A DNA stretch of 64,000 nt from an uncultured Chloroflexia bacterium (GTDB lineage Bacteria > Chloroflexota > Limnocylindria > Limnocylindrales > CSP1-4), in assembly GCA_963726055.1 (NCBI GenBank), contig CAVSAP010000001.1:35167-99166 (forward strand). The letters run 5' to 3'. The translations under genes and the position numbers were made by a program. Numbering within the stretch: position 1 is the stretch's first letter; each line of letters begins with the position of its first letter. The notes under the pieces were generated by a model, which saw nothing but the letters and a program-made list of their open reading frames with translations, was not told where the DNA came from and did no database searches. Shown piece by piece: positions 41,667 through 57,881 of this stretch.

Positions 41667-42512
41667 TCAGGTCGGGGTCTTGCGGCTCTGAGTTGCGGCC
41701 AGCCGGGCGACCTTGACCGCGACGCTGCCACCGGGAATCAATAGCCCGATCGTGTCCGCCCCGATGTCGAAGACGGCGTCGCTGCTGATCATCTTGGTCA
41801 TCCGCGAGACCAGTGCCTCACCCTGCCGCATCTGGCCGGTCACGGCATCGAGCTCGACGACGCCGGTCTTGTCCTTCGTCTTCCAGTGGAACTCGAACGC
41901 CCACCACGGGTGGTAGTACAGATCGACGTTTTCGATCGTCATCGATTCCTCGGTGACGCTGTCGGCCTGGACGGGCTTCATCATCGTCGCAAGCAGCTGG
42001 CGGACGACATACGAGGCTCGCTGCTCCGGCGGGATGACGATTGTTTCGTTCTCGCCGAGCGCCGCCAGGTCGCTGACCTCCTGGCGCGGGCCTCCGATGA
42101 TCGCGGCCGCGCCGGCGACCGGGGCACCGCTGACACCGTCGGCGAACAGTTCCGCGCTGAACTCGTCTCGACAGTGCTCGACGGTCGCCAGGCTGAAGGA
42201 TCGGGCGGCGTTGACCGTGTAGTCCTGGCCGTGGACGGTGACCTCGCGCACCTCCGGGCCGCTGGCCGAAATCGTGTAGTCATGGGAGCGGTCATAGACG
42301 TAGCGGGCCTGGCACGCGACGTGCCAGAACGGCTCGAGCCGGCGCTGGCTGGCAACGAGCTCGATATCGTCGGCCTTGGGGCGTGACAACAGGCTGCCGA
42401 TGCCCGACCCGAACGCGCCCGTGCGTCGATCCATGGCCCGCTGGCGGATCTCGTCGGCCGTCAGACGTTCGTCGAGGACGTAGACGTGTTGATCCGCTAG
42501 CTCGATCTCCAT
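41667..42512 (-). CDS. conserved hypothetical protein
   Basis: 281-aa globular-looking ORF, RBS AGGAG, GC3-biased codons. Confidence 0.7.
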   Translation of the reverse strand: MEIELADQHVYVLDERLTADEIRQRAMDRRTGAFGSGIGSLLSRPKADDIELVASQRRLEPFWHVACQARYVYDRSHDYTISASGPEVREVTVHGQDYTVNAARSFSLATVEHCRDEFSAELFADGVSGAPVAGAAAIIGGPRQEVSDLAALGENETIVIPPEQRASYVVRQLLATMMKPVQADSVTEESMTIENVDLYYHPWWAFEFHWKTKDKTGVVELDAVTGQMRQGEALVSRMTKMISSDAVFDIGADTIGLLIPGGSVAVKVARLAATQSRKTPT

Positions 42513-42616
42513 GCGGTTCTCCTAGGGGCACCGTCGTTCGCTCAGGCAGCCATCATCGCGCCGTCGCGGCAAATGTCTATCGGTTTCTCGCGGCCCGAAG
42601 TGACTGCTGGTGCGCG

Positions 42617-42988
42617 TCACTTCTTCGGAGGCTTTGGTTTCAGGCTCAGCGCATAGCGGTAGCCGAGCTCGAGGTACGGCCGCAGCGCCTCGGTGTCCCG
42701 GAGAAGGTCGTCCGGGACTGCGACGAACTCCCTGGCCGGCGGCCAGCTCGGGTCCCCGCGAAAGAGATCCGCGCCGTACCGCTCCATGAACGCCGCCCGT
42801 TCGGCGGCGGGCAGGCGGATCCCGACGACGCCGTGCTTCGAGATCATCGAATACATGTTTCCGTTCACAGCCGTGTACGCCGCGCCGAAATTGGATTTCG
42901 ACTCCACGTCCGCAACCGAGTCGAGCAGCCGCTGATAGAGGAGCAGCTTGTCCGGCGGGACGGTGATGGCCTTGGTACGTGCCGCCAT
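42617..42988 (-). CDS. TfoX N-terminal-like domain protein
   Basis: 'FGAAYTAVNGNMYSMI...VVGIRLP', 'REFVAVPDDLL...YLELGYRYALSLKPK'; RBS GGAGGGAG. Confidence 0.7.
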   Translation of the reverse strand: MAARTKAITVPPDKLLLYQRLLDSVADVESKSNFGAAYTAVNGNMYSMISKHGVVGIRLPAAERAAFMERYGADLFRGDPSWPPAREFVAVPDDLLRDTEALRPYLELGYRYALSLKPKPPKK

Positions 42989-43094
42989 GGCTCCCTCCGA
43001 TCGGGTCATGAAGCTGGGTCAACGTTGCCTTGCCCGGACGCGTGTCCCGTCGATGGCGAAGGAACAAAGGGCGTGCCATGATCGTCGCTGCGTC

Positions 43095-43840
43095 ATGAAA
43101 CATTTCACGAACTTCCTGGTTTTCGCACTACTCGCCCTTGTCATTCTCGCCTGTGCAGGCGGTGCCGCCTCGTCGACGACGCCGCCGCTCGGCTCGAGCC
43201 CTGCTCCCAGCCTATCCCTCGTCCCGATCGGGACGGCCGAGCAGGCGGCCGCACGCGTCATCGAGAGTCGCACCGCATCTCGCGGACATCGGGGAGAAGG
43301 ACCCGGACCTGATCGGCGGCTGCTGTTTCTGGGAGGCGACCGAGACCGCAGACGGCTGGCAGGTCGTCTTCGAGGTCGGCTGGGGCGATTGCCAGTCCGG
43401 CTGCATCGAACGCCACCAGTGGACCTACGGCGTGACGCGTGACGGAGGGGTGACGCTCATCTCCGAGGGTGGACCTCCGGCCCCGTCCGGCGTGCCCGGC
43501 TCGGGCGGCAACACGGGCGGGATTCTGCCCGGCGGCACCGGGATCCAGGGTCGGGTGATTGCTGGACCCACGTTGCCCGGTCGTCACGCTCAACGACCCC
43601 TCGTGCGATGACCGTCCCATGGCCGACGCCACGGTGCTCATCCTGGATGTGCAGGGAACGGAGATCGCTCGCCTCGTCACGGACGCCGGCGGCCACTATG
43701 GCGTGACGCTCCCGTCCGGCGCCTATTCCATCGAGCCGCAGCCGATCGACGGCGTGATGCGAACCGCCGACGCGGAATCAGTCACGGTGGGCCAGGGGTA
43801 CGTGACGGTCGACCTGCTCTACGACACCGGGATCCGCTGA
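43095..43840 (+). CDS. lipoprotein with C-terminal prealbumin-like (carboxypeptidase regulatory-like) domain; two frameshifts (~43265, ~43572)
   Basis: Lipobox VILAC; 'GWGDCQSGCIERH'; 'GIQGRVIAGPT|CPV...CDDRP...TDAGGHYGVTLPSGAY' spread over three frames. Confidence 0.7.
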
Positions 43841-43852
43841 CCCAACCCGCCG

Positions 43853-44026
43853 TCAGCGCGCCGCGAGCGGCGACATGTAGAGGGCGACGACGAGGAGTCC
43901 CGCGAACACGGAGACGATCACGGTGAACAGCACGACCACGCGAAGCCCGAACCAGGGGCGAGGAGCCTCGAGGGCGTGGTCCGGGGGCTCCTCTGGCAGG
44001 ACCGTCAACGGATCTGCTTCGATCAC
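43853..44026 (-). CDS. 57-aa single-pass membrane protein coupled to TadG-like copy 3
   Basis: GTGA overlap with the upstream stop; MIEADPLTVLPEEPPDHALEAPRPWFGLRVVVLFTVIVSVFAGLLVVALYMSPLAAR. Confidence 0.6.
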   Translation of the reverse strand: MIEADPLTVLPEEPPDHALEAPRPWFGLRVVVLFTVIVSVFAGLLVVALYMSPLAAR

Positions 44027-46382
44027 GGGACGATGAGGTGGACCGGGTTGCCCTTGATCGCGACCTTCCAGGTGGTCACGTCGTCCGACGTTCCTGTTCC
44101 GGTCATCGTGTACTGGATCTTCCACCAGCCCGACTGGAGGGCCGTGTAGCCGCTGGGGATGGGGATCTGGATCGTCAACCAGCAGCCGTTGAACCTGCTC
44201 GACGGCGTCGAGGTCTGGACCGACGTCACGTTGTTTCCGGCGAGGGCGTTGCAGTTGGAGGCACCGGAGTTTGTCGTTCCCTTTGCGGCCGTGTAGTCGA
44301 AGGTTGTCGGCGACCAGCCGCCGGCATCCGGGACGAGGATTCGGAGCGTTCCACTCAGTGGGCTGGTGTCACCCGGGTCCCAGAGCTTGATCTCGACCGT
44401 CTTGCCGGCGTGGACGGCGTCGATCTGGGCCAGGTAGAACTCCGATGAGACGGCCGGTCCCGACGCCGACAGCGGCGTGAAGGCCTGCATCGCCCCGATG
44501 CCATAGATGCGGGGCGTCCCGACAGTCGCTCTCGTGTAGAGGGCAAAGCTGTTCTCGCCGTACGTCCCTCGGGTGTCACCGACACCGTTCGGGTCGGTCG
44601 TGGTCGTGTGGACACGGTAGATCTTGCCGCCGGCGAGCCCACTGGCCAGGAGGTACCAGCGGTTGTGGTAATCACGACCGTCACCGTAGGCCGTGTCTGT
44701 CGTGTACCGGCACTGCGTCGGCGTGCCTGTCGTCGTGCCGCCCATCGTCGAGTCCGAACCCTTCATCCCCAGGAACATTGAGGTCGACGTCGCGACAGCA
44801 GGTCCATCGTCGGTGATGTCCGTGAGCGTGCCCTTGGTGTCGAAGACCTCGTACGAGGAGTTGACGAGATCGACACCGTCATCGTCGAACCAGCGGTCGC
44901 CGGTTCCCTTGTTGTTCTGCGGTCGCGCAGAAGCCGGGGTCGTAGACGTACACGGAGCCGCCGCTGGAGCCCGGGGGCATCTCGATCGCGTAGTTGTAGA
45001 ACTCGCTGGGCCCGTACGCCGGGTTGATCGTGCCGCCGTGCGTGTCGTAGTACGCCTGGTGGATGTCGCCGTTGACGTTCTCGGCACCCTCTGTGTTCAT
45101 CGTTCCCCAGAAGCCATTGGGGCTGAGGACCTGCCCGTCGGCCTCGTAGCAGTCTGACGACGCCGGTGGTGCAGTCGGTGCCCGGGCCCTCGACGGGCAT
45201 GTCGACCGGCGCCGTGGTTGTTGTCACGGGTGTCTGCGTCACCGTGTCGATGCCGTAGTTCGCCTGAACCTGGATCATGTCAACCCGGAGCAGGGTGGCG
45301 ACCGTGCACGGCGAGGGGCCCTTGGTCGCGGTCAGCCGGACGCGGAAGTTGCTGTTCCCCAGATCGTTGCCGGTCCATGTGTGGGCGGGCAATGCCAGCG
45401 GCCAGGCCGTGACCGCTGTGGCCGATCCCAGCGTGTAGTCCGTAGAGGTAGTCGTCGTGAGGCTGCCGGTCGTCGGGGCGCGGTTGTTGGCGGTGGCCGT
45501 CGTCCAGTGGAGTCCGGCGTCGTACGACAGGGCCACCTGGATGAAGCTGCCTGCGCACGCGAGGTTCACGAAGGCGTCAGTCAACCGAACCTGGATTCCA
45601 TTGACCGTCGTTGCCGTCTGGTTGGCCGCCAGGCCGGAAAGCAGGTCGAAGTCTCGCCAGATCTGGTTGCGGCCGTTCGTGTTCGTCTGGGCGTAGACGT
45701 TATCGTTCCCGCCGACGGCGGTGATGAGCGTGCCACCGCTGACCGCCCACGCTGCCGTCGACGGAACCGTCGCCGTGATGGCGGTCGGAACCTTGAGGCC
45801 GGAGTTCCCCGTCGACGGCGTGTGCACGTCGACCATGTTCGTCGTGGTCGAGGTGAAGCCACGGGAGGGTCCGAAGACGCCGTACCAGTTGTCCGGGCTG
45901 CCCATCGGGACGGGCAGGACGAACTCCGCGCGGGCGACCCGGGTCGAGTTGATCTGGTTGATGCCGAAGATCCGCATGAAGAACATGTCGACCGGCGCCG
46001 AGACGGTGACTTCCAGGCGACGCCCGGTGACGGCTGGCTGCTGGACCGGGGTCACGGAAATTACCAAGGACGCGTCGTCGTAGCCGTTCTTTGTCGCCTC
46101 GGCCCTGGCCAGGGCGTAGGCCCCGCCGGCGCCGCCGGGGTTGGTCGGCAGCTGGACGACGCCGGCGAGAGCGGCCGCGTCGGCGGCCCGCTGGACGCGG
46201 AGCGAGTTGACCCAGTACCACGAGACGTCGATGACGAGGGCGACCATCCCGGTGAAGACGAAGATCGCCATCACGAACAGGATCAGGATCTGACCGCGCG
46301 AGCGCTCGGTCGTGGGTCGTTTCGCCCCGAGCGGGCGATCGCCCCGGTTCCGAGTCTCAGCCAGGTCGTTCACAGTTGTCAC
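44023..46382 (-). CDS. TadG-like pseudopilin/adhesin, copy 3 (frameshifts ~45150 and ~44925)
   Basis: Prepilin-like 'RGQILILFVMAIFVFTGMVALVIDVSWYW...QRAADAAALAGV'; C-terminal 'FYLAQIDAVHAGKTVEIKLWDPGD...GWWKIQY...GNPVHLIVP'. Confidence 0.8.
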
Positions 46383-46388
46383 CTTGTC

Positions 46389-47018
46389 TCAGCTGGCGCC
46401 CGGATTGAGGGCCATGATGGTTCGGTCGTTGATCCTGAGCTGCGCCGTTCCGGTCATGCCCATGAAGTTTCCCAACGGCGTGACGTACAGGTAGTCGTAG
46501 ACGAGGCTCACGCCGAGCGAGTCCGGGTTGACCCCGTTGTTCCTTCCGCACGGACTCCAGCTGTCTGCGCCGGCGCGGACGAACAGGAGTTGAACACCGT
46601 CCACCGGGGGACCGTTACCGGGGATCCACCTGTTCGACTGGCCCAGGGTGTCGGCGCCATTGGCATCTGCCTTGTAGATCCTGATTTCCTTGACCTGGGC
46701 GATCGGCAACTGGCCGCCGGCTCCGGTCAGGACGCGCTGCACCGCCGCGATGATGTAGGCGTCGACGTTCGCGAGTGGATCGATGGCCGGGCTACACGCG
46801 ACTTCGGCGGTTCCGGATGCCAGCGCCGCGCCGTATCGGGCGCCCTCACGGGTGGCGTATTCGAGTGTCAGGTGGTGGGAGAAGGCGAAGCCGAACTCCA
46901 GCATGCCCAGCAGGAGGATGAGGACGACCGGCATCGCGATCGAGAGCTCGATGAGGCTCTGGCCTCGCTCGCCGGTCCGACGAGTGGTCAATGCGCGAAG
47001 GCGCGCCAGGGTCTTCAC
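46389..47018 (-). CDS. TadE-family pseudopilin
   Basis: 'ERGQSLIELSIAMPVVLILLLGMLEFGFAFSHHLTLEYATREGARYGA'. Confidence 0.9.
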   Translation of the reverse strand: MKTLARLRALTTRRTGERGQSLIELSIAMPVVLILLLGMLEFGFAFSHHLTLEYATREGARYGAALASGTAEVACSPAIDPLANVDAYIIAAVQRVLTGAGGQLPIAQVKEIRIYKADANGADTLGQSNRWIPGNGPPVDGVQLLFVRAGADSWSPCGRNNGVNPDSLGVSLVYDYLYVTPLGNFMGMTGTAQLRINDRTIMALNPGAS

Positions 47019-47677
47019 AGGATCGGCTCCATCCGCATCGAGTTGGCCTTGATGATCGTGTAGCCCGAACCCGACAGCTGCAGAATCCCTGCCAGCGGCG
47101 TGCGCCAGGTGTAGCTGTAGCTCACCTCGACGCCGATCTGGTCGACGGCGGTGGTCGCGGGCAGCGGTGCATTTGCCGGGCAGCCCGCGAGGACGTTGCA
47201 GCGCTTCACGTCCTCGTAGTTCTGGCCACCGGCAAGCGTGTACGGGACCGTGACCGTGATCGGGCCTGGGAAGATGCAGCTCATCGATCCGGTTCTGTTG
47301 TACGTGTTGATTGCCTGCTTAACGCCGAGACGGTCGGCCTTGAAGATCTGGACGCTGGTCACCTTGGCGTGATCGGACGGCGCGGTGATCGAGTCCTCGA
47401 CCTTGGTGAGGATCACGCAGTCCGCACCGTCGCCATTGCCGGCTTCGGCCGCGATCAGCGCGGCTTCGCGCGTGGCGAAGTTGACCGCCAGGACCGCGTT
47501 GAGGGCAAAGGCGAACTCGATGATCCCCACGAGAAGGAGGACGAACAGCGGAACGACCAGGGCGAATTCGACGAGGCTCTGGCCGCGGCGGCGTTCCGCG
47601 CCTTCGGGGCGGCGCAGGAAACCGCGACGCCGGCGGACCGAGCCTGGCCCGGCGCCCTGGCGCAGCTGATGTGACAT
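47015..47677 (-). CDS. TadE-family pseudopilin
   Basis: 'RRGQSLVEFALVVPLFVLLLVGIIEFAFAL...ATREAALIAA'. Confidence 0.9.
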   Translation of the reverse strand: MSHQLRQGAGPGSVRRRRGFLRRPEGAERRRGQSLVEFALVVPLFVLLLVGIIEFAFALNAVLAVNFATREAALIAAEAGNGDGADCVILTKVEDSITAPSDHAKVTSVQIFKADRLGVKQAINTYNRTGSMSCIFPGPITVTVPYTLAGGQNYEDVKRCNVLAGCPANAPLPATTAVDQIGVEVSYSYTWRTPLAGILQLSGSGYTIIKANSMRMEPIL

Positions 47678-47884
47678 CGTCGTTGAGGACCTCACGAGTA
47701 GGTTGGCTGTGGCGGAATTGGGTGGCGCTGGAAGGGGACTGGGCCCCGTCGTGATCGTGCGGGTGGGGTCTGCTGCGGTCCCCCTGACCGTCGTACGGGG
47801 CGCGTCGGTACTTGCGAAGGAGGTCAGGGCTTCTGCGGCTTGATGAATCAATCTGGTCCCCGTAGGTTGCGGACTCTTGAGATC

Positions 47885-47954
47885 AAGCTAGGGCCGCGAC
47901 CTTGAGTCGGTCCTTGAAACGTTGCCCGCCTGCATAGCCCCTTCGGCGGGTTCG
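47885..47954 (-). promoter_or_regulatory. promoter module A: TCAAGG-N6-TCAAGG, N9, -10 TAGCTT, plus a 23-bp upstream element
   Basis: Repeats at 47900-47905 and 47912-47917; -10 at 47885-47890; CGAACCCGCCGAAGGGGCTATGC identical to module B. Confidence 0.65.
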
Positions 47955-48006
47955 ATGCGGACAGGAGTCATCGCGGGGCGCATCGCTGCAGCGGTCGGGC
48001 AAACGA

Positions 48007-48038
48007 TTGAGCCGCGCCCGATCGCGGACGCGGCTCAA
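48007..48038 (-). terminator. 13-bp hairpin TTGAGCCGCGTCC/GGGCGCGGCTCAA after TadG-like copy 2
   Basis: Inverted repeat about 35 nt after the stop, followed by TCGTTT on the minus strand; near-identical to 50524-50557. Confidence 0.7.
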
Positions 48039-48072
48039 GAAGTTGGGAGGGAGTCCCCCGCCGATGCCTCGG

Positions 48073-50336
48073 CTACGGGACGATGAGGTGGACCGGGTTC
48101 CCGAGGATCGCCACCTGCCAGGTGGTCGTGTCGTTGGCGGCGCCGACTTCGTACTCGATCTTCCACCAGCCGGGCTCCGTTTCGCCGGCCGGGGTGAGCC
48201 CGACCGAGCCGTAGCTCGACGGCAGCGGGATGGTGATCGTGATGACGCTGTTGTCGAAGCTGCTGCCGGTCCCGCTGATGGCGGTCCTGATGTTTGTGCG
48301 GTTCGAAGCGGAGCAGACGTCGCTGGTCCCGGAGTTGCACTCGGCGTCCGCGAGATAGTCGAAGACCGCGTAGTTGTAGGCGTTGCCGTCGGGGCTCTTG
48401 ATCCGGAGCCTGGCGTCGCCGGCCACGTCGCCCGGGTCGAAGAGCTGGATCTCCATCGTCTTTCCGGCATGGACCGCTTCGATCTGGGCGAGGTAGAACT
48501 CCTGGCGGGCCGCGGCGCCGGTCAGGTTGGAGTAGGCCGCCATCTTGGCCTCGCCGTAGACGCGTGCCGACCCTGCACCGCCGTTGGCACCGACGTAGAT
48601 CGACCAGAGGTTCTCGGCGCCGGTCGCGGCATTGCCCGCCTGGCTCGAGACGACGTTGACCCGATACTTTCCGGCGGCCAGGCCCGCTGGCCATCGTGAC
48701 CCAGACGTTGTGCGCCGGATCGGCCTGACAGTTGGTGATCGGAGCCGCCCGTCGGGATGTCACCCGTTCCCGACCCATCGGCCGGGTTGTCGAACTGACC
48801 GCTCTGGTCCGAGGCGCGGGTCGTGTAGCTGTTGGTGGCGACGAGCGTGTCGTTGCCCTTGTCGACGGTGCCGTTCGTGTTGTACAGGAAGAACTCGGTC
48901 GTGACCGGCCCGTTCGTGATGCCGCCGCTCGCGGGAAGGCTCGTCCAGTGGTCACCGGCTCCGTAGTTCCCGCTGCCGGCCGGGTTCGATCCCGTGGCGC
49001 AGAAGACCGGGTCGAAGAGATGGACGCGCCCGCTGGTCCCGTTGATCTCGACGATGTAGTCATAGCCCGTCGTGATCTGCTCGGTGTTCAGTGCCGACCC
49101 TCCGCCGGTGAACCACTTCGGCGAATACCGGTCGCCGTTCTGACGGACACCTCCGCCGGTGAAGACCGCGCCCCAGAAGCCCTGGCTCGTCGGCGCGATC
49201 GTCTCGCCGGCCGGGGTCGGCACGGGCACGGTGGCCGGGGTGTAGGTGATGGGCCCGGGCAGCATCGGGTGGTACGTGACGCGGACCTCGAGCGTGTCCA
49301 CGGAGGCCGTCCGGCTCGCGCCGCAGTTGGTGGTGGGCCTGTTCCACATCAGGCGGACCCGGAAGTTCGCATCCGTGAAGCTGGAGTACAGCCATTGCGG
49401 CGGCGTGCCCGGCCGCGGCCAGGCGGTCAGGTTGGACGCGCTGCCGATCGTGTACTGCGTCTCGGCGAGCGTGATCGTCTGGTCGACCGGCGTGGTCGTA
49501 AAGGCGACGCCGTTGTTGTAGGAGAGCGTCGTCCGGATTCGACAGCCCGTGGAGTTGCCCGATCCCGTCAGGATCGCGCGGAAGCGGACCTCGATGCCCT
49601 CGATGACCGCGCCAGTCGGGATGCTGCCGGCGCCGGTCGTGAGACCGAACGTTCCCCATTGCTGCGCGGCATTGTTCGTCGTCGTGCTGACCGAGTACGA
49701 GTTGTTGTCGTTGGCGTCGGCCCTGACCGGATTGGACCAGACCGTTGCGGGAAACGACGCCTGCGTCTTCCAGCCGGTGTTCGCTGTCGCGCCCGGCACG
49801 TCGGGGCCCTGGTTCGCGTTGAGCTTTTCGAATGTCCCGACGCCGTACCACTGCTGGGGGCTGCCCATCGGGACGGGCAGGACGAATTCTGCGCGAGCTG
49901 TCCGCGTCGCCTGCACCTGCGTGATGCCGAAGATCCGCATGAAGAACATGTCGACCGGCGCCGAGACCGTGACGACGAGGCGACGGCCTGTCGTCAGGGG
50001 CTCCTGGAGCGGACTGATCACGATCGCTGCAGAGGCGTCGTCGTAGCCGTTCTTCTTCGCCTCGGCCCTGGCCAGGGCGTATGCGTTGGTCGCGTTGTTC
50101 GGCAGCTGGACGACGCCGGCGAGAGCGGCCGCATCGGCGGCCCGCTGGACGCGGAGCGAGTTGACCCAGTACCACGAGACGTCGATGACGAGGGCGACCA
50201 TCCCGGTGAAGACGAAGATCGCCATCACGAACAGGATCAGGATCTGACCGCGCGAGCGCTCGGTCGTGGGTCGTTTCGCCCCGAGCGGGCGATCGCCCCG
50301 GTTCCGAGTCTCAGCCAGATCGTTCACGTTCATCAC
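48073..50336 (-). CDS. TadG-like pseudopilin/adhesin, copy 2, chimeric (frameshifts ~48745 and ~48680)
   Basis: 5' about 217 bp nearly identical to copy 3; body similar to copy 1; ends 'GNPVHLIVP*'. Confidence 0.8.
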
Positions 50337-50401
50337 CTTGTCTCAGCCTGCGCCCGGTTGGGCGAGGTTCGGTTGCCGCCAGTTGCGGGCTCTCTACAGG
50401 C

Positions 50402-50471
50402 ACGCTATGGCTGCGACCTTGATTAGGCCCTTGAATCGGTGCCCACCCGCATAGCCCCTTCGGCGGGTTCG
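50402..50471 (-). promoter_or_regulatory. promoter module B: TCAAGG-N6-TCAAGG, N9, -10 TAGCGT, plus a 23-bp upstream element
   Basis: Repeats at 50417-50422 and 50429-50434; -10 at 50402-50407. Confidence 0.65.
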
Positions 50472-50516
50472 GGGCGGGCAGAAGTCCTGTCGAGGAATCG
50501 GTGAGATCACGTGGGG

Positions 50517-50670
50517 GAAAAGGATTGAGCCGCGTCCGATAATGGACGCGGCTCAATGAGTGCGTACGAGCCCCGTGGACGGTAGAGCGCCTCGAGTGCG
50601 CCCTCACTGGACCCAGAAAGTCGATATGAGCCCGATCGCCTGAGGGAGAAGATCCTCAGCAGCGGTGGGA
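50517..50670 (-). ncRNA. candidate ~150-nt structured sRNA
   Basis: Bounded by a promoter motif (50677-50709) and a 14-bp terminator hairpin (50524-50557); two internal stems; no start codon plus RBS found. Confidence 0.4.
50524..50557 (-). terminator. perfect 14-bp hairpin ATTGAGCCGCGTCC-N6-GGACGCGGCTCAAT followed by CCTTTT
   Basis: Seen directly in the sequence. Confidence 0.75.
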
Positions 50671-50676
50671 TTCAGA

Positions 50677-50710
50677 ACATTGAGGCCGCCACCTTACGGC
50701 GAACCTTGCA
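50677..50710 (-). promoter_or_regulatory. promoter C: TGCAAGG-N6-GTAAGG, N9, -10 CAATGT
   Basis: CCTT at 50692 and 50704 (12-bp period). Confidence 0.55.
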
Positions 50711-50764
50711 ATGGTGCGTGCGCGAGTAGCCCATTCGGTCCTGTGGCGGTGACGATCGTCCCGG

Positions 50765-52297
50765 TCAGCCCTCGCCCGGTGGTTCACCGGGCAGGAAGAT
50801 GCTGAACGCGGCACCTCCGCCCGCCACCCGCGGCTCGAGGACGAGATCGCCGTCCATGGCCCGACACAGCTCGCGCGAGACGTACAGCCCCAGGCCGCTG
50901 CCATCCTCCGGGCCCATCGAGGCGCCACGGACGAACCGGCCGAACAACCGGGCGCGATCCGCTTCCGGCACGCCCGGCCCGCCGTCGGAGATCGTCATCC
51001 GGACCCTCGCCGGTGTCTCCTCGGCGGCCACGTCGACGCGGATCGGCGTCCGGTGGCCGTACTTCACGGCGTTGTCCAGCAGCGCCCAGAGGACCTGGTC
51101 GAGCTGATCGGTGTCGGCGATCGCCAGCCAACCGTCGGATCGGTCGTCGATCTCGAACGGCGTGTCGGCGGCGCCGAGGGCCTCCCACGCCCGGCGGACC
51201 CGCGGCCCGAGCGAGACCACCTCGCCCCGCGGATGCAGGGCGCCCGACTCGAGTCGGGTGACGGTCAGCAGCTGGCGAACCATCCGCGACAGGCGCTCCG
51301 CCTGCTCCGCGATGATCCCGAGGCGGCGGTCCGGCCGGTCGCCGTCCAGCTGATGCGCGTACGCACGGATGCTGGTCAGCGGCGTCTGGAGGTTGTGGCT
51401 GACGCCGCGAAGGAAGTCGTCCTTGGCCGCGTCGAGCTCGAGCAGCTGGTGGTTCTGGGCCTCGACCCGGGCGAACAGCTCGGCATTCCGGATGGCCACG
51501 GCGACTTCGCTGGCGTACAGCTCGAGGAGATCCTGGTCGGCCCGATCCCACCCCCGCGTCGCCGGCAGGTGACCGACGAGCAGCCCGAGTTCCTCCTCAC
51601 CGGCGCGCAGGGTTGCCCGGACCGGCAGCGGCTCGCCCGGGATCCGCGGCTCCGGCGGGATCTGTGCCGGGTCGACGAGCAGGATCCAGCAGTCGACCAT
51701 GCCGAAGGCGGCCCGGGCGTCGGACGAGGCCCGCCCGGCGAGGAACTCGACGCCGTCGCGCGGAGACGCGGTCTCGAGCGCCGCGAGAATCCGCCCGAGC
51801 TCGCGGTTCCGGCGCTCGAGCGTCGCGGCGAGCCGGTTGTGGCTGTCGGCGAGGTGGGCCAGCTCGTCGTTGCCCGGCACGATGATGGGGGTCGACAGGT
51901 CGCCGGCGGAGACACGATCGACGGCCGACGCGATCGCCCGCAGCGGGCCCATCAGGTCCGCCGTGAGGAGGTAGCCGAGCAGGATCCCGAGCAGGGCGGC
52001 CATGACGACCGTGAACAGGAGCAGCCGGCCGATCGTTCCGACCGGTCCGACGTTGTCGCCGACGAGCAGGACCACCAGCCCGAAGCTGGCCAGCGGGATG
52101 ATCGCGGCCGCGACCAGGCCGATCGTGAGCCGCGAGCGGAACGGCAGGTTGAACGACGACCGCCCATCACCTTCGTCGTCGCGGTCGCGGGGATCATCGA
52201 TTGCAAGGAGAGCCGCGACCATTGCCGATCGCTCATCGTCGTCGGCCGGGAGATCCTGGCTGGCGGCTCCGGGAACCGGCTGCACGCCGTCAGCCAT
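50765..52297 (-). CDS. sensor histidine kinase (2 TM, HAMP, GAF-like, HisKA, HATPase_c)
   Basis: H-box 'VSHNLQTPLTSIR', N-box 'LLDNAVKYG', 'DGGPGVP', 'GSGLGLYV'; HAMP 'GPLRAIASAVDRVSAGDLS'. Confidence 0.92.
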   Translation of the reverse strand: MADGVQPVPGAASQDLPADDDERSAMVAALLAIDDPRDRDDEGDGRSSFNLPFRSRLTIGLVAAAIIPLASFGLVVLLVGDNVGPVGTIGRLLLFTVVMAALLGILLGYLLTADLMGPLRAIASAVDRVSAGDLSTPIIVPGNDELAHLADSHNRLAATLERRNRELGRILAALETASPRDGVEFLAGRASSDARAAFGMVDCWILLVDPAQIPPEPRIPGEPLPVRATLRAGEEELGLLVGHLPATRGWDRADQDLLELYASEVAVAIRNAELFARVEAQNHQLLELDAAKDDFLRGVSHNLQTPLTSIRAYAHQLDGDRPDRRLGIIAEQAERLSRMVRQLLTVTRLESGALHPRGEVVSLGPRVRRAWEALGAADTPFEIDDRSDGWLAIADTDQLDQVLWALLDNAVKYGHRTPIRVDVAAEETPARVRMTISDGGPGVPEADRARLFGRFVRGASMGPEDGSGLGLYVSRELCRAMDGDLVLEPRVAGGGAAFSIFLPGEPPGEG

Positions 52298-53027
52298 CGG
52301 CCGGTGGTTCCACCGCTACGAGCCGGTAGCCGACGCCCCGCACGGTCTGGAGGTGGACCGGGTGGTTCGGGTCGATCTCGACCTTCTGGCGGAGCCGGCG
52401 CATCGTGACCCAGACGTATGACGGGTCGGCGTCCTCGGTCTCGGCCCAGCCTCGGACGAGCAGGGTCTCGGTCGTCACCGTCTGGCCGATGTTCGCCGCC
52501 AGCGCGTACAGCAATCGGGACTCGGTCGGCGTGAGCGAGACCGGATTCGCCCCGACGGTCGCCTGGCGACGATGAAGGTCGAGCGTCAGGTTCGGGCCGA
52601 GACGGAGACTCTGCCGCGGGACCTTGTCCCCGAGGCGCTTGAGGACCCTGTTGATCCGCGCCCGGAGCTCCGGATAGTGGTACGGCTTGGTGACGTAATC
52701 CTCAGCGACCTCTTCGAGGAGGTCCGCCTTGGAGTCGCTGGCATCGATCGCCGACAGGACGATGATCGGCAGATCGGCCTGGCCCTTGATCTCGCGGGCC
52801 AGGGTCAGCCCGTCCATCCGGGGCATCATCATGTCGATGATCAGGAGATCGGGCCAGCCCGACCGCAGCCGGCGCAGCGCCTCGTCGCCGTCCCGCGCGG
52901 TCTGGATCTCGTAGCCGTCCGCCCGCAACTGGTCGGCCAGGAGGACGAGCTGGTTCGGGTCGTCATCGACGAGGAGGATTCGGGGGGCCGTCTCGCCACC
53001 GTATGCGCCTGATGGACCGCTGAGCAT
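52290..53027 (-). CDS. OmpR/PhoB family response regulator
   Basis: 'ILLVDDD', phospho-Asp 'LIIDMMMPRMDG', 'DYVTKPY', winged helix 'LTPTESRLL...RRLRQKVE...QTVRGVGYRL'; leaderless TATACT-N6-ATG. Confidence 0.95.
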   Translation of the reverse strand: MLSGPSGAYGGETAPRILLVDDDPNQLVLLADQLRADGYEIQTARDGDEALRRLRSGWPDLLIIDMMMPRMDGLTLAREIKGQADLPIIVLSAIDASDSKADLLEEVAEDYVTKPYHYPELRARINRVLKRLGDKVPRQSLRLGPNLTLDLHRRQATVGANPVSLTPTESRLLYALAANIGQTVTTETLLVRGWAETEDADPSYVWVTMRRLRQKVEIDPNHPVHLQTVRGVGYRLVAVEPPADG

Positions 53028-53087
53028 GGCCCGAGTATAGGCAGAGGCGGATCAGGCTCCGCAAGGTCTCAGGCGTGGATCGGGGAC

Positions 53088-54080
53088 TCAGCCGCTGGGA
53101 GCCGGGGCCGACGGGGCGGCCGATTTCGTCGCCCTCGGTGCCTTCGCCTTGCCGGCACCGACCACGACCGCATCGAGGGAACCGTCGCTGCGTTTGACTC
53201 CTGTTGCCACGAGCCGGTTGCCGATCTCGACGTTGGCGATGGTCGCCTTCGCTCCATTCAGGCCCCGCACGAGGTAGCGAGTGTCGGCGTCGACATGGAT
53301 GACGACGCTCGAGCCGTCGCGCTGCTTGACGGTGATCGTGTCCGCCGTCTTGGCCGTGACCTCGCCACCGACGCGGGACAGCGAGATCCGGACGATCGTC
53401 GCGGTGAAGGCATCGCTCGAGCCGGGCGCGCCCGTGGCGGTGATCTTCGAGCCGACCTTGACGTCGGCCTTCGTCGCGTCGACTCCACCCTGTCGGTACA
53501 CGGTCGAGCCGTTCACGGTCAGCGTCGTCGTGCTTCCGCCGCGTCGCTTGATCGTGATGGAATTGCCGCTCACGGCTGTGACTTCACCACCGGCCCTGGC
53601 GGCAGGCACGGTCAGGGAGACGACCGTGAACGAGCCGTCGGCATTCTTTGTCTGCCGGAGCCGGACTTCGTGGCCGACGGCCAGGTCGCCGACCTGCCCT
53701 GCCTCCTTGCCAAGGAAGATCTTCGTGTCGGCGGCGACAACGATCGTGCGAGTCCAGCCGTCCGCGGTCTTCAGACCGATGGTCGAGCCATTGATGCTCG
53801 TGATCGTGATGGGTCCGAACGCCGAGCCGCCGCGCGACTTCTTGCCCTGACCGCCGCCGTTTGCTCGATCGCCTGCCTTGTCGGAGGCGGCTGCGGACGC
53901 CGCGGCACCGCTTGGGGCCGGATCCGCGCCGGGCGACGTTCGCGGGGCCGAGGAGGCGCCGAGGACGACGGCCACGCCGACGCCCAGAACCAGGCAGGCC
54001 GCCACGATGCCGGTGCGGGCAGCCTGCCCGCCGCCGGAGCGTCGGGGAGTCGGCGGGACAGGGGCGATCTCGTAGGTCAC
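53088..54080 (-). CDS. DUF5666 repeat membrane-anchored protein
   Basis: N-terminal TM, then three 'G.(V/I)T...G..IT.K..DG....(I/V).V...T' repeats. Confidence 0.8.
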   Translation of the reverse strand: MTYEIAPVPPTPRRSGGGQAARTGIVAACLVLGVGVAVVLGASSAPRTSPGADPAPSGAAASAAASDKAGDRANGGGQGKKSRGGSAFGPITITSINGSTIGLKTADGWTRTIVVAADTKIFLGKEAGQVGDLAVGHEVRLRQTKNADGSFTVVSLTVPAARAGGEVTAVSGNSITIKRRGGSTTTLTVNGSTVYRQGGVDATKADVKVGSKITATGAPGSSDAFTATIVRISLSRVGGEVTAKTADTITVKQRDGSSVVIHVDADTRYLVRGLNGAKATIANVEIGNRLVATGVKRSDGSLDAVVVGAGKAKAPRATKSAAPSAPAPSG

Positions 54081-54217
54081 ATCATGCCTCGGTTGTGGTC
54101 GCGGGTGCGTCGCTGCCCTAGCCTACTGCCCCGAATCCGTCGCGCTAGGGGGTCGAGGTCCTGCCGCGACGGTTGATGGTGCGCGTGCGCGCCATCGCCG
54201 CACGGCTCAGCTGCCGC

Positions 54218-54355
54218 TCAGCCGCCGATCCCCTGCAGGCCGTACATCCAGATCGCGATGAGGCCGCCGAAGATCACGACGATGATCGTCATCACGATGA
54301 GCGCGGTCATGGTCCGGTTTCGATCCGTGCGGGGCGATCGGCCGGGGTCGGTCAT
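54218..54355 (-). CDS. 45-aa single-pass membrane protein coupled to TadG-like copy 1
   Basis: ATGA overlap; MTDPGRSPRTDRNRTMTALIVMTIIVVIFGGLIAIWMYGLQGIGG; below the ORF-track length cutoff. Confidence 0.6.
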   Translation of the reverse strand: MTDPGRSPRTDRNRTMTALIVMTIIVVIFGGLIAIWMYGLQGIGG

Positions 54356-56590
54356 TCAACGACGAGGTGGACCAGGTTCTCGAGGATGGCCACTTGCCAT
54401 GTGGTCGTGTCGTTGGCCTTGGCGACCTCGTACTCGATTTTCCACCAGCCAGGTTCGGTTTCTGTGCCGGGTGTGAGCCCGCCGTCACCGTAGGTCGCCG
54501 ATAGCGGGATGGTGATCGTGATGACGCTGTTGTCGAAGCTGCTGAGGCCGCCGACCGCGGTTCTGATGGAGGTCCGGCCCGATGCCGCGCAGGCGTCGCT
54601 CGTCCCGGAGTTGCATTCGCCGTCGGCTTGATAGTCGAACGTTGCGTAGGAGTAGGAGCCGCCGTCGGGATTCATGATGCGAAGGGTGGCACCACCTGCG
54701 ACGTCGCCCGGGTCGAACAACTTGATCTCCATCGTCTTTCCCCGGTGAACGGCCTCGATCTGCGCGAGGTAGAACCGCTGGCGATCCGTGGGATTGGTGC
54801 CAGTCAGGTTGGAGTAGGCCGCCATCTTGCCGAGCCCGTACACGCGGGCGGATCCAGTCCCGCCGCCGTCGCCGACGTAGATCGACCAGAGGTTCTCGGC
54901 GGCCGTCGCGGCATTGCCCGGATGACTCGTCTTGACGTTGAGGCGGTATTTCGCGGCCGATAGCCCGGTGTTCATCGTGACCCAGGCGTTATGCGCGGGA
55001 TCGCTCTGGCAATCGGCAATCGGGCCGCCTGTGGGGATGTCACCTGCTCCCGGACCGCCGACGTCTGGATCATCAAACTCGCCGCTCTGGTTCGAGGCGC
55101 GGCTCGTGTAGGGCGGCAGGGTCGAGACCTGTGTGTCGTCACTCGGGTCGAGAACCGTGCCGTTGGTGTTGTAGAGGGTGAACTCCGTCGTGACCGGCCC
55201 GTTGGCGGTGCCCCCACTGGCGGGAAGGGTGGTCCAGTGATCGCCGGCGCCGTAGTTCCCGCTGCCGGCGGGGTTCACTCCCGTCGCGCAGAAGACCGGG
55301 TCGAAGAGATGGACTCGCCCGTTCGACGCGCCAAACTCGACGATGTAGTCGTAGCCTTCGACGATCTGCTCTGCGTTCAGTGCCGACGAGCCACCGGCGT
55401 ACCAGTGCGGCGAATACCGATCTCCGTTCTGGCGGACGCCGCCCGCCGTGAAGACCGCGCCCCAGAAGCCCTGGCTCGTGGGCGCCACCGTCTCACCGGG
55501 CGGGGGCGGGACAGGGACTGTGACCGGCGTGTAGGTGATGGGCCCGGGGAGCATCGGGTGGTACGTGACGCGGACCTCGAGCGTGTCAACGGATGCCCTG
55601 GAGCTCGCGTCACAACCGCTCAGCTTGTTCCACGTCAGACGAACCCGAAAGTTTGCGTCGGTGAAGCTGGAGAACGCCCACGAGCCTGCCCCGGGCGGTC
55701 GCGGCCAGCCCGGACAGGCCCGAGGCGCTGCCGATCGTGTACTCGTCCTCGGACGTGGTCAGATCCTGGTTCAGGGCCGTCGTGGTCCAGGCCAATCCAC
55801 CGTTCCAGGACAGATTCGTCTGGAGCTGGCAGTTCGAGGCGCTCCCGCCGCTCCCAGTGATGACGGCGCGGTATCGAACCTCGATCCCCTCGATCACGGC
55901 GCCGGTCGGGATGCCGGTGCCGCCGCTCGTGAGCCCGAAGTCACCCCATTGCTGGGCGGATCCGTCCGCCGCCAGGCTGACAGCGAAGTCGTCGTCGTCC
56001 TGGTCGTCGGCGTTTTCGGGAGTCGCCCAGCTGCCGGCAGACGGCGTTCCGGGGCTACGGAAGGTGGTATCCGTGGTGGGACCTGGCACGGGTGGTGCCT
56101 GGACGCGATCGAGCTTTTCGAACGTTCCGACGCCATACCACTGCTGCGGGCTGCCCATCTTCAGGGGCAGGTTGAACTCGGCATGGGCGGTTCGTGACAC
56201 GGTGAAGGATTGCATCCCCACGACCCGCATGAAGAACGTGCCGACCGGCACCGTGATCTTGACGTTCAACCTGTAGGGGTTCGCCTGCGGGTCCCAGCTC
56301 GGGCTGACGACGACGCCGCCGACTCCATCGTCATAGCCGTTCTTGATCGCCTCCTTGTGGGCGAGCTGGTATCCGCGGGGCGGATCAGCCGGCAGCGTGA
56401 CCGCTCCGGCGAGCGCGGCCGCGTCTGCGGCACGCTGGATCTTCAGGGCGCTCGACCAGAGCCAGCTCAGGTCGATGACGATCGCCATCATCAGCGTCAT
56501 GACGAGCATCGCCCCGGCGAAGATCACGATGACCTGCCCGTTCGATCGACGGTCGGCCGGCGCCGCCAGGAGGTCCGGCCGCTCAGCCAT
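54352..56590 (-). CDS. TadG-like pseudopilin/adhesin, copy 1 (frameshift ~55710)
   Basis: 'NGQVIVIFAGAMLVMTLMMAIVIDLSWLW...QRAADAAALAGA'; C-half in ORF 54352-55554; an extra G in 'tccGggctgg' breaks the frame. Confidence 0.82.
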
Positions 56591-57206
56591 CCTGGAACGG
56601 CTCCAGGGCCATGATCGTGCGGTCCGTGATGCGCAGGTTTCCCGCACCGCCGATCCTCAGAAACGTCCCGAGCGGGGTGATCGCGTTGTAGTCGTATTTC
56701 AACGACACGCCGATCGAGTCGGGTTCAGCCGTCGGGGTCAGGAATTTCTCGCGTGAACAGGCGCTCCACGGCTGGCTGATCGGCCTCCACACCAGGGGAG
56801 TGTTGTCGACTCGCCGGCCATCCGAGCCGGGCACCCAGACATTCACTGGGCCAGCCTCGCCACCCGTGGCGTTGGCCTTGTAGATGCGGATTTCCACGAC
56901 CTGATCCCTTGGCACCTGCGAGCCCGGCGACGTGATCACCCGCTGCACCGCAGCGATGATCAGGTCATCGACATTCTCCAGGCTGTTGGGTGCGCAGAGC
57001 ACCGTCTTCGTGCCGTTTGCGAGCGCGGCACCGACACGGGCCCCCTCGCGGGTGGCGTACTCGAGTGTCAGGTGATGCGAGAAGGCGAGACCGAACTCGA
57101 GCATCCCGAAGAGGATGACCATGAAGGCCGGCAGAAGGATCGCAAACTCGACGAGGCCCTGGCCTCGCCGACCCAATCTCGTAGCGCGCCCTGGCCGCCG
57201 AGTCAC
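56583..57206 (-). CDS. TadE-family pseudopilin
   Basis: 'RRGQGLVEFAILLPAFMVILFGMLEFGLAFSHHLTLEYATREGARVGA'; paralog of 46389-47018. Confidence 0.9.
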   Translation of the reverse strand: MTRRPGRATRLGRRGQGLVEFAILLPAFMVILFGMLEFGLAFSHHLTLEYATREGARVGAALANGTKTVLCAPNSLENVDDLIIAAVQRVITSPGSQVPRDQVVEIRIYKANATGGEAGPVNVWVPGSDGRRVDNTPLVWRPISQPWSACSREKFLTPTAEPDSIGVSLKYDYNAITPLGTFLRIGGAGNLRITDRTIMALEPFQDG

Positions 57207-57865
57207 AGCACGGGCTCCATCCGCATGACGCTGTCCCTGACCAGCCTGGTGGTGCCGCTGGAGCCCCCAAACAGGCCGCCGAGGGGCGTATGCCAGACGT
57301 AGTCATAGGTCACTCGGACCCCGATCTGATCGACGCCGATCTGCGTGGGCGTGCAGCCGATGATGCGGTTGCACCGGTTGAGCGGCGGATACGAATCGCC
57401 GCTGACCGTGTAGGGAACCGCCAGCGCTGGGGCTCCGCCTGGCATCGGGCAGGTCTTCATGCCTCCCCGATCGTAGGTCGTGATGTTCCCCGTCTCATTG
57501 CCGGCGCGATCAGCGCGGAAGATCTCGACCTTGATGATCCGGTTGCGGTCGGCAGGCACCGTGACGCTCGCATCGACTGCCTCCAGGATCAGGCAATCAG
57601 ACCGGCTGAGGTTGCCTGCCTCGGCCGCAATCAGCGACGCCTCGCGGCTGGCGAAGTTGATCGCCAGGTAGGAGTTGAAGAGAAACCCGAACTCGACCAC
57701 GGACATGATGAGCAACATGAACAGCGGCAGGACAAGCGCGAATTCGGTGAGGGTCTGGCCGGAGCCACGCCGGCTCCGCCGACCTCTGGTCGGCGGCCGG
57801 CCCCCCTCGTTGGATCGCGACACGATTGCTCGATTACCCCGGAAAGACGCGTGCGGATACGGCAC
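57203..57865 (-). CDS. TadE-family pseudopilin
   Basis: 'GSGQTLTEFALVLPLFMLLIMSVVEFGFLF...ASREASLIAA'; paralog of 47015-47677. Start at 57865 or 57823. Confidence 0.9.
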   Translation of the reverse strand: MPYPHASFRGNRAIVSRSNEGGRPPTRGRRSRRGSGQTLTEFALVLPLFMLLIMSVVEFGFLFNSYLAINFASREASLIAAEAGNLSRSDCLILEAVDASVTVPADRNRIIKVEIFRADRAGNETGNITTYDRGGMKTCPMPGGAPALAVPYTVSGDSYPPLNRCNRIIGCTPTQIGVDQIGVRVTYDYVWHTPLGGLFGGSSGTTRLVRDSVMRMEPVL

Positions 57866-57881
57866 GTTGGGTGAGGTCTGG

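Follow-up and report, generated by a model that had tools for sequence, protein, structure and literature searches.

A solo TadG-like gene of two ancestries, with an old module join and signs of pilin-module gene conversion, in an uncultured Chloroflexota bacterium

The window analysed here, a 64-kb stretch of the genome of an uncultured Chloroflexota bacterium, carries three paralogous TadG-like genes, referred to as copies 1, 2 and 3 (Table 1). TadG-like proteins are the large minor pilins of a Tad pilus tip complex, where they make up its tip or its backbone. Copies 1 and 3 each directly follow two genes that match PF07811, which gives two tadE-tadE-tadG cassettes (cassettes 1 and 3) at this locus, and more copies are found elsewhere in the genome. 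Copy 2 lacks its own tadE pair and is located directly upstream of the cassette 3 pair, which is intact when compared with the L018 orthologues. The tadE linkage layout is identical in four other genomes and stable across all five. The three genes are co-oriented and full-length, each with a start codon, leader, pilin module and upstream region of its own. T2SSE-family ATPases are encoded on contigs C2 and C6, away from the cassettes, and one of them is divided between two reading frames. Copy 2 and cassette 3 are each preceded by their own hairpin and conserved element. These duplicates belong to direct-repeat families D12 and D16 (81-83% identity), and an Rfam scan of the window, including the duplicated upstream element, returned no known RNA family. 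The two hairpins, of 13-14 bp, can be read in the sequence yet were not called by a simple promoter/terminator scan.

Table 1. Features of the TadG-like locus, with positions in the 64-kb window.
Feature	Position	Strand	Remarks
Copy 3, TadG-like gene of cassette 3	44023..46382	minus	alpha N-module and type II passenger; two +1 frameshifts
Partner tract in copy 3	46140..46403	minus	holds the true tadE2 3' end and stop codon
Cassette 3 tadE-like pair	46389..47851 (47851/47677-47015, 47018-46389)	minus	PF07811; directly downstream of copy 2
Second hairpin and conserved upstream element	47884..48043	minus	between copy 2 stop and cassette 3 tadE1
Copy 2, solo TadG-like large minor-pilin/adhesin gene	48073..50336	minus	alpha N-module and type I passenger
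Copy 2 type I passenger, beta-rich domains	48073..49857	minus	two +1 insertions near 48746 and 48682
Copy 2 N-terminal pilin module	49858..50336	minus	start codon to PMGSP codons
12-mer GGGCTGCCCATC, (P)MGSP codons	49858..49869	minus	module border; end of copy 2/copy 3 homology
Newest gene-conversion tract in copy 2	50094..50357	minus	about 20 nt of 5' flank (tadE2 3'-end remnant and RBS) and codons 1 to about 80
GC-rich hairpin with T-rich tail, then conserved element of about 95 nt	50401..50561	minus	upstream of copy 2
Copy 1, TadG-like gene of cassette 1	54352..56647	minus	beta N-module and type I passenger; one frameshift
Cassette 1 tadE-like pair	56583..57865	minus	PF07811 matches

Copy 2 is about 753 codons long in a conceptual translation that bridges both of its +1 frameshifts, and an intact orthologue, P0001 (752 amino acids), is 95% identical to it. 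A match to the Tad domain family PF13400 covers residues 30-76 of copy 2, and the scores for this family in the three copies are 36.6, 35.8 and 32.5 bits against a curated cut-off of 22.3. The AF2 model of P0001 (mean pLDDT 88) has helices at residues 29-74 and 81-94 and strands at 105-150, followed by beta-rich domains, and this orthologue is thus predicted to have a pilin-like fold, in which a long hydrophobic alpha1 helix is followed by a beta-sheet. The pilin module of copy 2 (about 160 codons, comprising the leader, the alpha1 helix, a small beta-sheet and the PMGSP end) is of the same lineage as that of copy 3, here named alpha. It is 87% identical to the copy 3 module in both nucleotides and amino acids and 48% identical to the copy 1 module in amino acids. 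The passenger (about 590 residues, beta-rich) is of the same lineage as the copy 1 passenger, here named type I, with an amino acid identity of 70% to that passenger and of 36% to the copy 3 passenger. In nucleotides it is only about 75% identical to copy 1, and its sequence is distinct throughout. The passengers have no Pfam match, and a sequence-profile search against PDB chains gave no match. Foldseek matches at the domain level resemble CBM4/CBM11-like beta-sandwiches, a weak hint that the passenger may bind glycans. Whole-chain Foldseek matches were discarded as meaningless (TM of about 0.1).

The first-pass annotation had described copy 2 as resembling copy 3 up to PMGSP and copy 1 thereafter, and two analyses agreed with that description. 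In sliding windows, the nucleotide identity of copy 2 to copy 3 is 93-100% across the first 250 nt or so and then 68-86% to about position 49870. Past this point and up to the stop codon, identity to copy 1 is 65-90% and identity to copy 3 is 33-60%. The maximum chi-square breakpoint test, with 866 informative sites, gave chi2 = 229 (permutation p <= 0.0005). Its optimum lies at copy 2 position 49741/49740 instead of at the visual border of 49858, because a hypervariable stretch of about 115 nt follows QQWYGVGTFEKL in each of the three copies. On visual inspection, sites specific to copy 3 end (GTCCTGCCCGTCCCG) and sites specific to copy 1 begin (CAGCAG) immediately on either side of the 12-mer. 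This 12-mer had been reported from all three genes, and it does occur exactly three times in the window (45895, 49858 and 56148), at the equivalent position of each gene; the boundary between pilin module and passenger was also correctly placed there. On the coding (minus) strand the 12-mer reads GATGGGCAGCCC, the codons of (P)MGSP, and MGSP (M156 G157 S158 P159) is invariant across 76 of 76 aligned family members. Because it encodes a family-invariant motif, the 12-mer would be common to all three paralogs in any case. It marks the end of homology and would be a putative crossover site at most. A second breakpoint was considered at the last 45 nt or so, where copies 2 and 3 share GNPVHLIVP, and was rejected: this tail is the family consensus, and the copy 1 clade has the derived ENxVHLVVE.

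The combination of an alpha module and a type I passenger is found in at least six other assemblies or metagenomes. These orthologues (P0001-P0006) are 66-95% identical and lie in the context HK - gene - tadE - tadE - tadG on independent ENA and JGI contigs, while the orthologues of copy 1, with a beta module and a type I passenger, are P0007-P0013. Other module combinations, which the first-pass annotation had recommended looking for in related MAGs, do occur. In the N-module tree the alpha clade (99% support) mixes four passenger types, and in the passenger tree the type I clade (100% support) mixes alpha and beta N-modules. AU tests reject the congruence of the two trees (p = 5.9e-10 and 5.6e-58). 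Given these incompatible phylogenies, with which the synonymous sites agree, the mosaic of copy 2 reflects genuine recombination and not differential conservation. The dS between copies 2 and 1 is 0.64 in the passenger and the dS between copies 2 and 3 is 0.55 in the 3' half of the N-module, values that approach saturation in a genome as GC-rich as this one; between unrelated passengers the dS is 0.81. Since the divergence from both presumed parents is so much greater than the dS of 0.22 that separates this strain from its closest relative, the join is old. Other assemblies have the same mosaic among the same neighbouring genes, at identities as low as 66%, which indicates in addition that it is fixed. 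The join is therefore real and old, and it has become fixed in a clade of uncultured relatives within the Chloroflexota. The domain shuffling proposed in the first-pass annotation is thus retained in one respect, as a pilin module of the copy 3 type has been joined to a passenger of the copy 1 type, and abandoned in another, as a single recent chimera is replaced by an old join and recurrent conversion. In the passenger tree, the sequences with alpha modules and type I passengers are not cleanly monophyletic and P0006 has no firm position. The combination of beta module and type I passenger could be the derived chimera instead. Across the comparative set (five genomes of uncultured soil Chloroflexota with four passenger types and three pilin-module lineages), the pilin module is tied to locus position while the passenger differs. 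For example, passengers are of type I or III at position 2 and of type I or IV at position 1, and the passenger has been replaced at a fixed position in G011 and L018.

Between 50101-50317 and 46147-46363 there is exactly one mismatch in 217 nt, at 50133, as reported before, and the upstream sequence said to be shared, GCTGAGACAAGGTGA, precedes the start codons of both copy 2 and copy 3. A repeat finder aligned the two tracts of Table 1 over 264 nt at 97%, so that two adhesin genes share, at their 5' ends, direct repeats of 264 bp that are 3,954 bp apart. The dS between copies 2 and 3 is 0.058 in the first 78 codons as opposed to 0.55 for the rest of the N-module, and this recent 5' tract of about 260 bp stops some 230 bp short of the 12-mer. 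The tadE2 3'-end remnant upstream of copy 2 makes copy 3 the likely donor. Two substitutions are common to copies 2 and 3 within a strain and differ between G000 and the ERZ strain. In the other genomes as well, the N-modules at positions 2 and 3 of one genome (nucleotide identity 0.83-0.93) are more alike than orthologues between species (0.77-0.83). In an indel-free core of 159 nt, 1-9 differences were counted within genomes against 9-18 between the four species-level lineages, with only 1-3 between G000 and the near-identical strain L017. Tracts of 100% identity fall at different sites in different genomes. This pattern, patchy and seen at synonymous sites too, shows concerted evolution of the position 2 and position 3 N-modules by gene conversion in the five genomes. 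Codon-level constraint on the hydrophobic helix could account for part of the similarity.

It is likely, in our judgement, that copy 2 is a solo TadG-like gene of two ancestries whose modules were joined long ago, that its N-module has since undergone gene conversion, and that no programmed variation system is at work. A recent chimera, the product of one crossover at the 12-bp sequence within this genome, would fit the switch of informative sites on either side of the 12-mer and the near identity of the first 217 bp to copy 3. We consider it very unlikely. Orthologues with this architecture come from other samples at 66-95% identity, a misassembly shared by their contigs is improbable given the separate ENA, JGI and Logan sources, and the dS values of the passenger and of the 3' half of the N-module far exceed the strain split. 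Only the 5' 260 bp or so are recent, and the 12-mer codes for an invariant motif. The idea of a genome-specific crossover at a special site was accordingly dropped. The genome is a MAG of seven contigs, its paralogs share a near-identical repeat of 264 bp and the genes contain frameshifts, all of which could point to a false join of copy 3 and copy 1 reads. Such an artefact is nevertheless exceedingly improbable, as independent assemblies contain the same gene in the same context, omega is 0.11 between copy 2 and its orthologue, and a passenger with its own sequence, about 75% identical to copy 1, cannot represent collapsed copy 1 reads. The breakpoint is real, and the misassembly that the first-pass annotation had raised as a possible objection is rejected.

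Strong constraint on the pilin alpha1 helix, together with a tail in copies 2 and 3 that is retained family consensus, would also allow a history with no recombination, in which the pilin module of one gene family is highly conserved in copies 2 and 3 and evolves fast in copy 1. This history has very little probability, since a common tree is rejected by the AU tests, synonymous differences are fewer among paralogs within a genome than between orthologues, and the homology reaches into the non-coding 5' flank. In addition, N-modules are not slow in general: G011_c2 and G016 are 58% identical in the N-module and 71% in the passenger. The near-identical direct repeats at two adhesin 5' ends, the recurrence of conversion in several lineages and the enrichment of frameshifts in exactly the TadG-like copies might instead reflect programmed high-frequency variation, of the pilE/pilS or shufflon kind, or a deletion/duplication switch at the 264-bp repeats that changes the adhesin. 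This is quite improbable, because the contig has no silent truncated cassettes, inverted repeats or recombinase, five genomes keep one stable locus layout, and the few conversion tracts vary between species or strains only, in keeping with evolutionary and not within-population rates. A likeness to shufflon or pilS variation had been drawn on first reading and does not hold for these same reasons. The accompanying statement that the locus has no recombinase was correct. A profile search of the genome gave two matches to PF00589, both on contig C6, and none to PF00239, so that it has just two tyrosine recombinases, both on a different contig, and no serine recombinase was found. No inverted repeats were found flanking the three genes, the only notable inverted pair being the two palindromic hairpins.

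All three genes of this assembly contain +1 frameshifts, five in total, which were overlooked in the first reading. They lie near 48742-48746 and 48682-48684 in copy 2, near 45152-45157 and 44916-44932 in copy 3 and near 55707 in copy 1. Consensus errors at strain-variable genes in a long-read metagenome assembly, or else a real and recent pseudogenisation of all three adhesins in this strain, would with reasonable probability account for them. Errors are favoured by the fact that five of five are +1 insertions, by the intact orthologues, by the low omega, by the split T2SSE ATPase elsewhere in the genome and by a related ERZ contig that is rich in indels; against errors, the insertions lie outside long homopolymers. 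Pseudogenisation is favoured by about 13 kb of neighbouring genes that have no frameshift, the chance of all five falling in the TadG third being about 0.005. Copy 2 may be nonfunctional in this strain given its two frameshifts. A genome-wide frameshift rate was also sought with a GC3-phase HMM, which recovered some known shifts; its flags in the window were convergent gene ends, and the estimate was discarded.

In the favoured explanation, an alpha pilin module and a type I passenger were joined long ago with their border at PMGSP. Homologous gene conversion, of the RecA type and not site-specific, has since repeatedly homogenised the position 2 and position 3 pilin modules of each genome, confined to the N-module, and homology ends at PMGSP. 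The newest tract in this genome is the first 260 bp or so, with copy 3 as the likely donor. With its pilin module kept matched to that of copy 3, copy 2 may be able to dock on the TadE pair of cassette 3 and so act as a second choice of tip adhesin. Rather unlikely is the wider proposal that the locus is an evolutionary platform for swapping tips, in which modules are fixed to a position and a TadE pair, conversion keeps the solo TadG compatible and passengers are exchanged at PMGSP between paralogs and species; in its stronger version, recombination at the 264-bp direct repeats within populations would also switch the capping adhesin. The results show that in the large TadG-like subunit, pilin module and adhesive passenger evolve separably, with a sharp border at the invariant PMGSP, and that a solo adhesin gene has its pilin module homogenised with the one in the neighbouring cassette. 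From this comes a concrete rule, open to testing, as to which part sets docking and which sets binding. It extends known principles modestly: pilins are known to be modular, and adhesin paralogs to undergo gene conversion.

Several known systems invite comparison. In Neisseria pilE/pilS and the R64 shufflon, pilus subunits or tips vary through recombination between repeated cassettes. The pilS copies are silent, promoterless and 5'-truncated, whereas all three TadG-like genes here have a start codon, leader and pilin module. The R64 shufflon depends on the Rci recombinase and inverted sfx repeats, whereas this locus has no recombinase nearby, no flanking inverted repeats and copies that are all co-oriented. 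The Helicobacter pylori adhesin paralogs babA, babB and babC have near-identical 5' and 3' segments and divergent middles, and RecA-dependent gene conversion among them produces chimeras and homogenised ends. These chimeras arise at an observable frequency during infection and alter expression. In contrast, the join described here is old and fixed, and conversion is seen at the evolutionary scale only.

Streptococcus sanguinis PilB and PilC are modular type IV pilins with grafted adhesive or glycan-binding modules (bioRxiv 10.1101/2021.01.27.428410, PMC9934059). Copy 2 likewise has a pilin module that carries putative functional modules, but it belongs to the Tad filament class, its modules are different, and module exchange between paralogs has taken place in evolution. 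TadG/CpaL, a large minor-pilin-like protein, is described as the PilK-like subunit that licenses Tad pili, and its conserved C-terminal beta-strand is said to be required for assembly (PNAS 2026, PMC13533445). The copy 2 family similarly has an almost invariant C-terminal strand, NPVHL(I/V)VP, although its passengers are beta-rich domains of another sort, unmatched in Pfam, and the likeness is drawn from sequence and predicted structure.

In recent work on Myxococcus and Caulobacter, it is proposed that alternative tip complexes of minor pilins customise Tad pili. The study of Myxococcus xanthus Tad pili describes paralogous tip complexes of TadE/TadF/TadG type, KilL/M/N Tip1-4; their large subunit, TadG/KilN-like, is pilin-like in its N-terminal part, and its variable C-terminal module builds the tip and sets the properties of each tip (Herrou et al. 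2025, PMC12075869). Here, too, several paralogous minor-pilin sets are present per genome. Unlike the M. xanthus Tips as described in the text consulted, the locus has a solo large subunit whose pilin module is kept similar to its neighbour's by gene conversion, and its passengers vary between species at fixed locus positions. The Chloroflexota compared here are uncultured and known from sequence alone, and the locus provides a natural comparative data set for Tad tip variation in soil members of this phylum.

The three large TadG-like paralogs of the window all carry the PF13400 (Tad, TadE/G-like) domain of Pfam at their N-terminus. Two PF07811 (TadE) genes directly precede copy 1, and likewise copy 3, each set forming a tadE-tadE-tadG cassette. 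Copy 2 comes without its own tadE genes and adjoins cassette 3 on the upstream side; a 330-aa protein and a response-regulator/histidine-kinase pair lie between it and copy 1. In the remainder of the 3.7 Mb genome (G000, 7 contigs), contig C6 carries two further TadG-like paralogs, one intact (778 aa, with an alpha N-terminal pilin module, or N-module, and a type II-like C-terminal passenger) and one of 520 aa lacking the middle beta domain. The source labels of homologues assign the organism to the uncultured soil Chloroflexota, Limnocylindria-like. A unit made up of a GC-rich hairpin (13-14 bp) with a T-rich tail and, after it, a conserved element of ~95 nt with the core CGAACCCGCCGAAGGGGCTATGC is duplicated in the window. 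Its two copies are 81-83% identical, gave no match in Rfam, and resemble sequence at equivalent places in the congener G011.

Locations of the TadG-like genes and other features (window coordinates unless a contig is named)
Feature	Location	Strand	Description
Copy 1	56647-54352	minus	Large TadG-like paralog, PF13400 N-terminal
Copy 2	50336-48073	minus	Large TadG-like paralog, PF13400 N-terminal
Copy 3	46382-44023	minus	Large TadG-like paralog, PF13400 N-terminal
Duplicated unit	47884-48043		Upstream of cassette 3
Duplicated unit	50401-50561		Upstream of copy 2
TadG-like paralogs (G000)	C6:337274-339613 and C6:540463-541977		
ATPase gene (G000)	C6:1351456-1352521		T2SSE family, CpaF/TadA-like
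Position-1 TadG-like gene (G011)	L013:12918-15279		Two overlapping ORFs (frameshift)

The first-pass annotation described copy 2 as a chimera that follows copy 3 and then copy 1, and sliding-window identity confirms this switch. Copy 2 is 93-100% identical to copy 3 over the first ~250 nt and 68-86% identical thereafter up to about 49870, from which point to the stop it follows copy 1 at 65-90%. The near-identity of 50101-50317 to 46147-46363 was reproduced (1 mismatch in 217 nt), and the repeat reaches 264 nt, taking in the common GCTGAGACAAGGTGA ahead of the start codon that had also been reported as shared. The breakpoint is highly significant (maximum chi-square, 866 informative sites, permutation p <= 0.0005), with an optimum at 49741, which is ~115 nt off the visual border because the intervening stretch is hypervariable in all copies. 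The 12-mer GGGCTGCCCATC, proposed as the crossover point, has exactly three matches in the window, at the same position in each gene, and is flanked by the last copy-3-specific and the first copy-1-specific sites. On the coding strand it is GATGGGCAGCCC, the codons of (P)MGSP, in which M156, G157, S158 and P159 do not vary among the 76 family members aligned. Thus, the paralogs would share the 12-mer with or without recombination there. The claimed border between modules at PMGSP stands and a 12-bp crossover hotspot does not; as judged from the alignments, the 12-mer is a mark of the two-module border and of the end of copy 2/copy 3 homology.

Trees of 31 representatives built from the N-module (153 columns) and the passenger (601 columns) are incompatible. 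The alpha N-module clade (99% support), to which copies 2 and 3 belong, contains genes with four passenger types, and the type I passenger clade (100% support) contains genes with alpha and genes with beta N-modules, beta being the lineage of copy 1. Grouping the type I genes is rejected on the N-module data (AU test, p 5.9e-10) and grouping the alpha genes is rejected on the passenger data (AU test, p 5.6e-58). Slow evolution is, on the sequences compared, no general property of N-modules; for example, G011_c2 and G016 are 58% identical in the N-module and 71% in the passenger.

A search of 5.8 billion proteins recovered an intact 752-aa protein 95% identical to copy 2 (P0001) and five others 66-79% identical (P0002-P0006), all with a copy-3-type N-module and a QQWYGVGTF-type passenger like copy 2. 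In addition, P0007-P0013 are copy 1 orthologues, in which a copy-1-type N-module precedes the passenger type found in copy 2. The order kinase - gene - tadE - tadE - tadG recurs on the contigs of P0001 (ENA) and P0003 (two JGI metagenomes). The passengers of copies 2 and 1 share only ~75% nucleotide identity, so collapsed reads do not explain copy 2, and the recurrence of its architecture and context in ENA and JGI contigs likewise rules out a misassembly. A recent origin is ruled out by orthologues of the same architecture and by the dS values, which are 0.64 between the passengers of copies 2 and 1, 0.55 between copies 2 and 3 in the 3' half of the N-module, and 0.22 between copy 2 and its orthologue in the ERZ strain (L017, ERZ25039591 contig_36146). 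On these values, the age of the join is several times that of the strain split, and the omega of 0.11 in the latter comparison indicates purifying selection on copy 2 since the join.

The 5' end of copy 2 has a different history, dS to copy 3 being 0.058 over the first 78 codons. Positions 2 and 3, the locus places of these copies, were compared in five genomes (G000, L017, L018, L019 and G011). N-module nucleotide identity is 0.83-0.93 within a genome versus 0.77-0.83 between orthologues of different species. In the indel-free 159-nt core, the paralogs within each genome differ at 1, 2, 4, 9 and 9 sites; orthologues differ at 9-18 sites, mostly synonymous, among the four species-level lineages, and at only 1-3 sites between G000 and the near-identical strain L017. 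Stretches of 97-100% identity sit at different parts of the module from genome to genome. In the 5' tract, two substitutions separate G000 from the ERZ strain, and both paralogs agree in state within each strain. This sequence pattern is a signature of recurrent gene conversion. In G000 the tract extends ~20 nt 5' of the copy 2 start, and its non-coding flank points to copy 3 as the probable donor because it is similar to the end of tadE2 (final codons and stop) found upstream of copy 3, though this flank is partly ribosome-binding region.

Alternative pairings of N-module and passenger occur across genomes. Positions 1, 2 and 3 hold beta + type I, alpha + type I and alpha + type II in G000; beta + type I, alpha + type III and alpha + type II in L018; and beta + type IV, alpha + type III and alpha + type II in G011, where the position-1 gene with the fourth passenger type is frameshifted. 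By this sequence comparison, the passenger is exchangeable and the pilin module is bound to locus position. The shuffling of modules originally proposed is thus upheld, on an evolutionary time scale. The Tad cassette genes also evolve much faster than their neighbours (window 44000-64000, G000 versus L018), the tadE genes being 63-74% and the TadG-like genes 60-75% identical, compared with 97% for a USP-GT2 fusion, 93% for a 440-aa protein, 93% for the response regulator and 88% for the kinase.

Every TadG-like copy in the window is interrupted (two frameshifts each in copies 2 and 3, one in copy 1), and the earlier annotation had read through these shifts. The four in copies 2 and 3 are single-base insertions in G000 relative to the ERZ strain, and that in copy 1 looks like +1. 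The five shifts are on balance probably consensus errors at strain-variable genes, as orthologues are intact elsewhere, omega for copy 2 is low, the direction is uniformly +1, and an ATPase gene elsewhere in the genome is also split. This core gene is frameshifted into two abutting pieces in different frames (Pfam model positions 3-130 and 131-343). The enrichment of shifts in exactly the three TadG-like genes points instead to real pseudogenisation; no frameshift was found across about 13 kb of neighbouring genes compared with L018 proteins, and under uniform errors the probability of all five falling within the TadG third is about 0.005. The L017 assembly itself appears rich in indel errors, because its alignment to window 41200-53300 (~94% identical) contains 47 gap openings in 12 kb and the assembly has disrupted versions of the response regulator, the kinase, the acetyl-xylan-esterase-like gene and copy 3.

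AF2 models P0001 (mean pLDDT 88, pTM 0.71) with an unstructured leader at residues 1-27, then a long helix (29-74) and a small sheet to about residue 150, which together form a predicted pilin-like module, followed by two beta-rich regions and a final strand at 747-750. The passenger had no match in Pfam or PDB sequence searches, and the Foldseek matches in PDB were confined to domain level, namely to beta-sandwiches of the CBM4/CBM11 type (probability 0.94-1.0, ~13% identity, TM on target 0.44-0.52). In published work, subunits of the TadG/KilN type are described as forming the backbone and tip of TadE/F/G tip complexes and as having a C-terminal module that varies (PMC12075869), and TadG/CpaL as contributing a C-terminal strand that assembly requires (PMC13533445). 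Copy 2 is a putative alternative tip adhesin, and conversion with copy 3 may hold its pilin module compatible with the TadE pair of cassette 3. In the copy-1 clade (copy 1, window ~54352-54380, and P0007-P0013), the near-universal family tail GNPVHL(I/V)(I/V)P is replaced by ENxVHLVVE/D. This tail may have arisen by co-adaptation with the beta N-module or with the TadE pair that goes with it, since the terminal strand of CpaL/TadG reportedly completes the tip complex (PMC13533445).

The likeness to shufflon or pilS variation suggested earlier was not supported. The three copies are full-length and in the same orientation, no inverted repeats flank them, and a separate hairpin and conserved element precede copy 2 and cassette 3 alike. 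The absence of a local recombinase was correctly noted, as the only two tyrosine recombinases of the genome are both on another contig and the genome has no serine recombinase. Real module shuffling took place at the PMGSP border long ago, and its outcome is fixed and sustained by ordinary gene conversion. The themes represented here are known ones: modular minor pilins, alternative Tad tips and concerted evolution of adhesin paralogs.
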